The notes: generated from the sequence alone by a model not told the origin. Shown: positions 57,090-57,177, counted from the first letter of the stretch. The stretch is 64,000 bases of DNA from Escherichia coli (GCF_044324785.1 NZ_CP172127.1), one strand, 5' to 3'. Numbers and translations: made by a program.

Positions 57090-57177
57090 CTTTTTTAAAT
57101 TGCCCCTAGATGAATGCACGGGCGGAGAGGAAATACCCCTTCGCCCGTGTCAGTATAATTACCCGTTTATAGGGCGA

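Follow-up and report, generated by a model that had tools for sequence, protein, structure and literature searches.

The spacer between the dnaK and dnaJ genes of E. coli is probably not a separate gene but a cis-acting element of the dnaKJ messenger, that is, an attenuator or a hairpin protecting a 3' end, which sets the dnaK:dnaJ ratio. The spacer is 88 nt long and occupies positions 57090-57177 (minus strand) of the window, i.e., the whole stretch of 64,000 nucleotides that was analysed. A preliminary description of this DNA had proposed that the spacer may encode a small RNA and had offered, as an alternative reading, an attenuator or processing site setting the dnaK:dnaJ ratio. From the first proposal the name can be retained, and the independent sRNA gene is doubtful, as the spacer has no recognised promoter-like site and no feature in the K-12 RefSeq record, the RNA described (about 370 nt) is longer than the spacer, and its overexpression has no phenotype. 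The second reading is the one favoured by the data, namely a Rho-independent 3' end 5 nt past the stem, an approximately three-fold drop in RNA, a 2.1-kb band containing only dnaK, and the uncoupling of the two genes in Salmonella at low Mg2+.

DnaK and DnaJ are needed in unequal amounts from one operon, in a ratio that shifts under some stresses (low Mg2+, in Salmonella), and the hairpin of the spacer is the obvious structural candidate for the uncoupling of dnaK from dnaJ. The element has already been published or catalogued, together with its name and its 3' end; what appears mildly new is that the core of the stem is invariant well past the reach of the Rfam model, and that terminator-like equivalents are found at the same position in Alteromonadales. 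As regards annotation, "tpke11" is probably better read as a cis-acting intercistronic element of the dnaKJ mRNA than as an sRNA gene.

The cistron upstream of the spacer, dnaK (57178-59094, minus strand), encodes 638 aa ending in ...EEVKDKK and was recognised from the ORF list and from its annotation as dnaK in matching E. coli genomes. The downstream cistron, dnaJ (55959-57089, minus strand), encodes 376 aa, with the ATG at 57089 (MAKQDYY...) and the stop at 55959. The reading of the minus strand and the ORF list confirmed both the length and the coordinates that had been given for the spacer. Two sigma-32-type promoter sequences, as expected for the dnaKJ heat-shock operon, were recognised by eye upstream of dnaK in the region 59150-59260 (minus strand), reading CTTGAT...CCCCATTT and TTGAAA...CCCCTATT.

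The hairpin quoted in the preliminary description, cacgggcgaaggggtatttcctctccgcccgtg, was recovered letter for letter from 57149 to 57117 on the minus strand. This main hairpin (P3; 57117-57149, minus strand) can be written as CACGGGCG-A-AGGGG-UAUUU-CCUCU-C-CGCCCGUG, and it is built of an 8-bp outer stem (CACGGGCG/CGCCCGUG), a 1x1 A/C mismatch, a 5-bp inner stem (AGGGG/CCUCU) and a 5-nt loop (UAUUU). Its folding energy is -24.6 kcal/mol, compared to -10.7 +/- 2.7 in dinucleotide shuffles (z = -5.2), none of the 200 shuffles being as stable; the whole spacer folds at -32.1 kcal/mol, compared to -19.8 in the shuffles (z = -4.0, again 0/200). The probability of the hairpin is about 1.0 in all the contexts considered, i.e., the spacer alone, the spacer with 30-nt flanks, and a 301-nt context. 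With its 13 bp and -24.6 kcal/mol, it represents the GC-rich stem-loop expected of an intrinsic terminator.

A second, local hairpin that includes the dnaK stop codon is predicted by folding at 57156-57180 (minus strand; UAAU.GCCC-UAUAAAC-GGGU.AUUA), and its GCCC and CGGG[CU] blocks are conserved. This local hairpin and P3 make up the 3' UTR of a short dnaK-only RNA; an RNA ending at C66 of the spacer folds as the local hairpin plus P3, at -30.8 kcal/mol (z = -5.7). Two ways of calling the strand from the structure itself were set aside: folding energy is uninformative (-24.6 kcal/mol for the sense strand vs. -25.4 for the antisense one), and the counts of G-U vs. A-C pairs are confounded by register shifts. 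The strand was assigned from the direction of the operon and from the published 3' end.

The 301 nt around the hairpin share 100% identity with many E. coli genomes. The hairpin is present at a single site within the 64 kb of the window and at one place per genome in 5424 out of 5426 complete E. coli genomes; this single-copy occurrence rules out a REP or another dispersed extragenic palindrome. Compared to the K-12 spacer, that of the window differs at one base, the loop base 57135 (minus strand), which is A in the former and U in the latter. The window carries a minority allele, its exact 56-mer being shared by only 280 of the 5424 genomes, while the others differ by one base. The K-12 allele (A) allows one extra A-U pair closing the loop. 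A CsrA-type GGA motif was also considered; GGA occurs in the K-12 loop and is absent from the window allele, GGGGUAUUU, so that it is not conserved. Lastly, the hairpin contains in its 3' arm a GTG (57119) that shares the reading frame of dnaJ and would lengthen this gene by 10 codons (listed as a 386-aa ORF; region 57087-57119, minus strand). Since this GTG is buried in the stem and lacks a ribosome-binding site, it is probably not used as a start.

The search against Rfam assigned the spacer to family RF02031 (tpke11), with a match to the full model (1-77 of 77) at 57090-57167 on the minus strand (69.6 bits, E = 3e-15). The score is well above the gathering score of 43, the site is the only one of its kind in the window, and the reverse strand yields only 22.2 bits; in the whole window three Rfam matches are above threshold, tpke11 among them. 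The name that the preliminary description had given for the K-12 spacer RNA is therefore the right one, and papers on the "putative tpke11 sRNA" refer to this same place. The element under study agrees with RF02031 in locus, in strand and in matching the model over its full length; it differs in that the family is typed as "Gene; sRNA", whereas the evidence presented here points to a cis-acting mRNA element. The model exceeds its threshold throughout Enterobacterales, including the spacers of Yersinia, Serratia, Xenorhabdus, Edwardsiella, Pantoea, and Arsenophonus. It leaves uncovered the 10 nt that follow the dnaK stop, where the GCCC block lies, and it misses the homologous hairpins of Vibrio, Shewanella, and Aliidiomarina (no more than 32 bits; 32 bits in Aliidiomarina and no match in Vibrio and Shewanella). 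At several loci, weak matches to Rfam sX6 over the 3' end of dnaK seemed to hint at a parallel "340-nt sRNA" in Xanthomonas; these were attributed to chance, as sX6 is the gene of an 80-aa protein antisense to XCV1748 and is unrelated to dnaK. The other sub-threshold matches (sR17, PYLIS_3, lncRNA models) were likewise considered chance matches.

Among published RNA ends (supplementary files 1 and 3 of Adams et al. 2021, PMC7815308) there is a Term-seq 3' end at K-12 position 14145(+), 23 nt before the dnaJ AUG, which was classified as "internal tpke11" and is supported by 1862 reads on average. Mapped by sequence, its equivalent in the window is position 57112 (minus strand; ...CGCCCGUGCAUUC-3'), that is, C66 of the spacer, 5 nt past the stem. 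In the same dataset, the DirectRNA-seq coverage, taken over 800 nt on each side of the 3' end, falls from 1085 upstream to 351 downstream, an approximately three-fold drop (PMC7815308). In the presence of bicyclomycin, a Rho inhibitor, the two values are 1076 and 435, with a Rho score of 1.25, which is not significant and indicates a Rho-independent end (PMC7815308). The intrinsic-terminator score at 14145 is 4.33, which is borderline, values of at least 3.0 being regarded as "suggestive" (PMC7815308). Uniform read-through with no 3' end, the outcome that the preliminary description had named as speaking against its proposal, is thus not what the published Term-seq and coverage data contain. 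The filter rules applied by Adams et al. also imply that a dRNA-seq start site was called at most 200 nt upstream of the 3' end (PMC7815308), and such a start site would permit a discrete short transcript.

Data obtained by other methods and in another species are available as well. The main dnaK band in northern blots is 2.1 kb long and contains dnaK only (Stead 2011); the dnaK RNA increases in RNase E and RNase III mutants, while the dnaJ RNA increases only in the RNase III mutant (Stead 2011). In Salmonella, the dnaK RNA is about 2.5-fold more abundant than the RNA of the spacer and of dnaJ in low Mg2+, with equal levels in high Mg2+, the dnaJ part of the transcript being selectively destabilised; the authors recognise no intrinsic terminator in the 85-nt Salmonella spacer (Chan et al. 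2025). A search for dnaK and dnaJ in Dar & Sorek 2018 (PMC5927463; text and available supplements) and in the supplements of TERMITe 2025 and SMRT-Cappable-seq 2018 gave no result.

As to the source of this 3' end, the data are compatible both with termination and with the blocking of exonucleases. Termination would agree with the Rho-independence of the end, with a published score above the cut-off, with the location of the end a few nucleotides past the stem and with the U-tracts of distant relatives. Against it, a U-tract (defined as at least five U in eight positions) is missing 3' of the E. coli stem, the tail CAUUCAUC having only three U in eight, and the published score is barely over the cut-off. 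The tail that follows the stem, CAUUCAUCU, is not a U-tract, and no terminator was called by the consensus scan within the spacer. U-tracts satisfying the same definition are present in relatives belonging to Aliidiomarina, Salinivibrio, Lacimicrobium, and Alteromonas. A plain model in which any stable hairpin would serve does not account for the invariance of the CGGGCG/CGCCCG core of P3 next to a hairpin (P2, see below) that changes freely.

On the whole, the following sequence of events can be depicted. Transcription starting from the sigma-32 promoters upstream of dnaK would meet the very stable hairpin at 57117-57149, and a fraction of the RNA would end 5 nt past it. This might occur through inefficient termination by RNA polymerase, in which case the hairpin would be a Rho-independent attenuator, leaky because its U-tract is poor, or through the stalling at the stem of 3'->5' exonucleases entering after a cleavage further downstream; the two routes may also operate together. 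The outcome would be that the dnaK-only mRNA, about 2.1 kb long, is protected and abundant, and that there is roughly three-fold less dnaJ-containing RNA, from which dnaJ would then be translated starting from a poorly spaced ribosome-binding site. DnaK would be made in excess over its co-chaperone, in a condition-dependent ratio; this excess is deduced from the abundance of the dnaK-only mRNA, the lower level of dnaJ RNA and the poor spacing of the dnaJ ribosome-binding site. In such a scheme, what has been named tpke11 most likely represents a 3' fragment of the dnaK mRNA, stable and ending at the hairpin.

The element can be compared to two kinds of known systems. Partial terminators are known between cistrons of the same operon, an example being the rplL-rpoB attenuator. 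The dnaK-dnaJ spacer resembles such internal Rho-independent attenuators in having a GC-rich hairpin between cistrons, a Rho-independent 3' end a few nucleotides past the stem and a step-down in RNA of about three-fold; its relatives in Alteromonadales carry, in addition, a real U-tract. In contrast to them, the U-tract of E. coli is degenerate (CAUUCAUCU), so that no terminator is called, and termination is here a possible source of the published 3' end. Intercistronic hairpins may also shield the upstream cistron from 3' exonucleases, as do the malE-malF REP and the hairpin of the Rhodobacter puf operon. With these stabiliser hairpins, discussed in general terms by Dar & Sorek 2018 (PMC5927463), the spacer shares a stable stem-loop that closes the upstream, more abundant segment on its 3' side, and a downstream segment that is scarcer and selectively destabilised; it differs from them in not being a REP element, in being single-copy in every genome and in being unrelated in sequence.

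In order to analyse the conservation of the spacer, a comparative set of 80 gammaproteobacterial loci from Enterobacterales, Vibrionales, and Alteromonadales was assembled, with one genome per species. The spacer was recovered whole at 78 of the 80 loci, with a length of at least 56 nt in all cases and of 82-125 nt in most Enterobacterales, and a strong GC hairpin follows dnaK in every spacer examined; those from outside Enterobacterales (L050-L080) fold at -16 to -29 kcal/mol. In the alignment of the Enterobacterales spacers, four blocks are conserved: UAA-U[CU]GCCC, which immediately follows the stop codon; CGGG[CU], 6-8 nt later; [AG]CACGGGCG...CGCCCGUG, corresponding to the outer stem of P3; and CAUGUUAAGGG[CU], before dnaJ. 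The core CGGGCG/CGCCCG of the stem is present in 44 out of 47 Enterobacterales spacers and also in Photobacterium, Enterovibrio, Salinivibrio, Vibrio, four Shewanella, Aliidiomarina, and Lacimicrobium; the inner stem and the loop of P3 vary, while the core remains constant.

Within Enterobacterales, the stem is conserved by identity and not by compensatory change: for the covariation of the main hairpin the shuffles reach the observed values, and six of its 15 pairs are invariant. Beyond this order, the inner stem is replaced wholesale and remains complementary (UUACC/GGUAA, UUUUGGG/CCUAAA, and UAGGAGG/CUCCUU). The finding, in the wider set, of inner stems that are wholly different yet complementary supports a structural role for the hairpin. 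In Alteromonas and Pseudoalteromonas, the same position is occupied by a hairpin of the form GGCGCGC...GCGCGCC (more generally, GGCGC(GC)...(GC)GCGCC) followed by UUUUG or UUUGUUG, which is the shape of a canonical terminator. The hairpin is also kept in reduced symbiont genomes (L046, L048), and an RNAz match is found in Buchnera. The spacers from the AT-rich reduced genomes of Candidatus Pantoea edessiphila and of a stink-bug symbiont (L046, L047, and L048) have a decayed 5' part and retain a CACGG(G/U)CG...(C/U)GCCCGUG hairpin flanked by UUU/AAAU; this retention in decayed spacers argues for a strong selection on the hairpin itself.

Some lineages harbor additional structures. In Alteromonas, Pseudoalteromonas, and their relatives (L057, L059, L061-L064, L069-L071, L073, L076, L079, and L080), the spacers are 120-210 nt long and contain, besides the terminator-like hairpin followed by UUUUG/UUGUUG, one or two more hairpins; their GCAUGU/GUGUGU motif after the hairpin recalls the GCAUGUU block of Enterobacterales. 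An extra perfect hairpin, P2, lies between the CGGGC block and the main hairpin in L018-L045 (e.g., L023:1092-1203, L025:1088-1203, and L031:1086-1203), in Enterobacterales outside Enterobacteriaceae, such as Pantoea, Erwinia, Pectobacterium, Serratia, Yersinia, Edwardsiella, Hafnia, Photorhabdus, Xenorhabdus, Tatumella, and others. Its sequence is wholly different from one genus to another and always forms a hairpin; in Escherichia and its close relatives P2 is absent, with only an AU-rich remnant, UAAUUAUACUG. The spacer of Mangrovibacter yixingensis (L011:951-1203) is 247 nt long, with the GCCC block and the main hairpin followed by an insertion of about 160 nt, which precedes the AAGGGC block and dnaJ.

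Other readings of the same data have to be weighed against a cis-acting attenuator or 3'-end hairpin. That tpke11 is a genuine trans-acting sRNA, either having its own transcript or being released from the 3' end of the dnaK mRNA and pairing with other mRNAs, seems to us rather unlikely. Its inclusion in a curated Rfam sRNA family and the northern signal cited in the literature speak for it; nevertheless, the current K-12 RefSeq record (NC_000913.3) has no feature between dnaK and dnaJ, no RefSeq feature underlies the match in the E. coli genomes listed, and the RNA figures in one paper as a "370 nt RNA candidate", which cannot fit into 88 nt and, exceeding the spacer, must contain coding sequence. 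The gel shifts reported with the pgsA, prlC, and yehU mRNAs were obtained in vitro only, and the RNA used in them had been lengthened past its annotation so as to agree with the northern in the literature. PhoP-dependent down-regulation occurs in Salmonella inside fibroblasts (cited in Chan et al. 2025), and transposon insertions in the spacer attenuate S. Enteritidis in macrophages (log2FC -3.32), but polarity of these insertions on dnaJ is a simpler account of the latter phenotype, and overexpression of the RNA affects neither biofilm nor motility nor fimbriae. In the stem and in the CAUGUUAAGGG block it is the sequence, and not the structure alone, that is conserved, as would suit an sRNA, but this block is the ribosome-binding region of dnaJ. 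The start site implied by the filter of Adams et al. would also suit a discrete transcript, while on the minus strand the consensus scan detects no sigma-70-like promoter within the spacer or close to it, and the 3' end is devoid of the U-tail needed by Hfq-dependent sRNAs. Features of this latter class are thus not recognised here: there is no U tail and no promoter-like site, and the targets derive from gel shifts in vitro only. Similarly, in comparison with sRNAs derived from 3' UTRs (of the CpxQ, SroC, and NarS type), the RNA fragment would likewise end at a hairpin closing the 3' end of an mRNA; unlike them, it has no U-rich tail, no evidence of an association with Hfq or ProQ was found, and its proposed targets are those of the in vitro gel shifts.

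The remaining readings concern the processing and the translation of the dnaKJ messenger. RNase E prefers to cut at RN|WUU, and the GCAUU right after the stem would be compatible with this preference, as judged from the sequence; the hairpin might then be a specific endonuclease site, cut by RNase III in the stem or by RNase E at GC|AUU just 3' of it, which separates the two cistrons. In such a case, the invariance of the stem sequence would reflect recognition by a nuclease or another protein, and stability alone does indeed leave the invariant CGGGCG/CGCCCG core unexplained. The effects of the RNase III and RNase E mutations on the dnaJ and dnaK RNAs (Stead 2011) point in the same direction, but they are small (1.3- to 2.3-fold) and may be indirect. 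Moreover, RNase III would find here a short stem, of only 13 bp and with a mismatch, GC|AUU does not coincide with the mapped 3' end (C66), and the GCAUUC tail of E. coli is not conserved, being replaced by GCACGCAUGUU or GCUCGUAUGUU in other Enterobacterales; we therefore consider an endonuclease site very improbable. A control of translation, which could act alongside the attenuator or 3'-end hairpin, is suggested by the sequences at the two ends of the spacer. Directly after the dnaK stop, the conserved GCCCU (57171-57175, minus strand) is predicted to pair either locally, with GGGU, or with GGGGC (57102-57106, minus strand), the Shine-Dalgarno-like block of dnaJ, which lies 13 nt before the AUG in E. 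coli. Sequence reading places an A-rich tract, AAAAAA (57091-57096, minus strand), immediately upstream of this AUG. The GGAG of dnaK is 8 nt from its AUG, compared to 13 nt for the GGGG of dnaJ; in Pantoea, the homologous AAGGG lies at the canonical spacing of about 6 nt from the dnaJ AUG. GCCC(U) would mask the Shine-Dalgarno block of dnaJ, and either the ribosomes terminating on dnaK or the local GCCC/GGGU hairpin would free it, so that the translation of dnaJ would be coupled to, and capped by, that of dnaK. When spacers are folded in isolation, the minimum-energy structure includes the long-range helix, both for the window and for nearly all Enterobacterales, and the distal partner is favoured in 41 of 43 isolated spacers. 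Little energy separates the two pairings, and the context decides between them, the distal one prevailing in 23 of 43 spacers with 30-nt flanks; in its natural flanks, however, the E. coli spacer prefers the local hairpin (0.96), which leaves the Shine-Dalgarno block unpaired by GCCC. Conservation extends to all three elements involved (GCCC after the stop, CGGG[CU] 6-8 nt further on, and (A)AGGG[CU] before dnaJ), but Shine-Dalgarno function alone accounts for the conservation of AAGGG. Furthermore, a test for covariation was negative, duplexes of cognate 5' and 3' arms being no more stable than those of non-cognate arms (mean -12.07 vs. -12.18 kcal/mol, permutation p = 0.68), and the helix is not recovered by RNAalifold, so that such masking appears unlikely. 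A broader reading would embrace the whole spacer as one conserved three-part regulatory RNA (P1+P2+P3), setting, and under stress re-setting, the DnaK:DnaJ ratio at the level of both RNA and translation, and we hold it to be distinctly unlikely. P1 would be a bistable closing element, in which the GCCC after the dnaK stop chooses between the local GGGC/U and the dnaJ Shine-Dalgarno; P2 would be a middle hairpin that varies with the lineage and was lost in Escherichia; and the stem of P3 would be kept invariant from E. coli to Vibrio and Shewanella by a protein or nuclease reading its sequence.

A few other features were observed in the surroundings of the spacer. A sigma-70-like promoter match, TTGGAA-16-AATAAT (9/12), lies at 57049-57076 on the plus strand, in the 5' end of dnaJ, and would direct antisense transcription into the spacer; sigma-70-like matches in the region are near the chance rate, with six found vs. 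3.2 expected. Downstream of dnaJ, about 840 nt (55118-55958) separate this gene from the next long ORF (53951-55117, 388 aa), which is probably nhaA. In K-12, IS186A is located just after dnaJ, and this insertion is absent in the strain of the window. The same interval contains a match to an Rfam antitoxin RNA of the sok/hok type (55553-55705, plus strand, 119.5 bits). Further away, the scan of the whole window retrieved a match to Rfam RF02750, "ES003 sRNA", at 37290-37342 (minus strand), with 87.4 bits compared to a threshold of 37.
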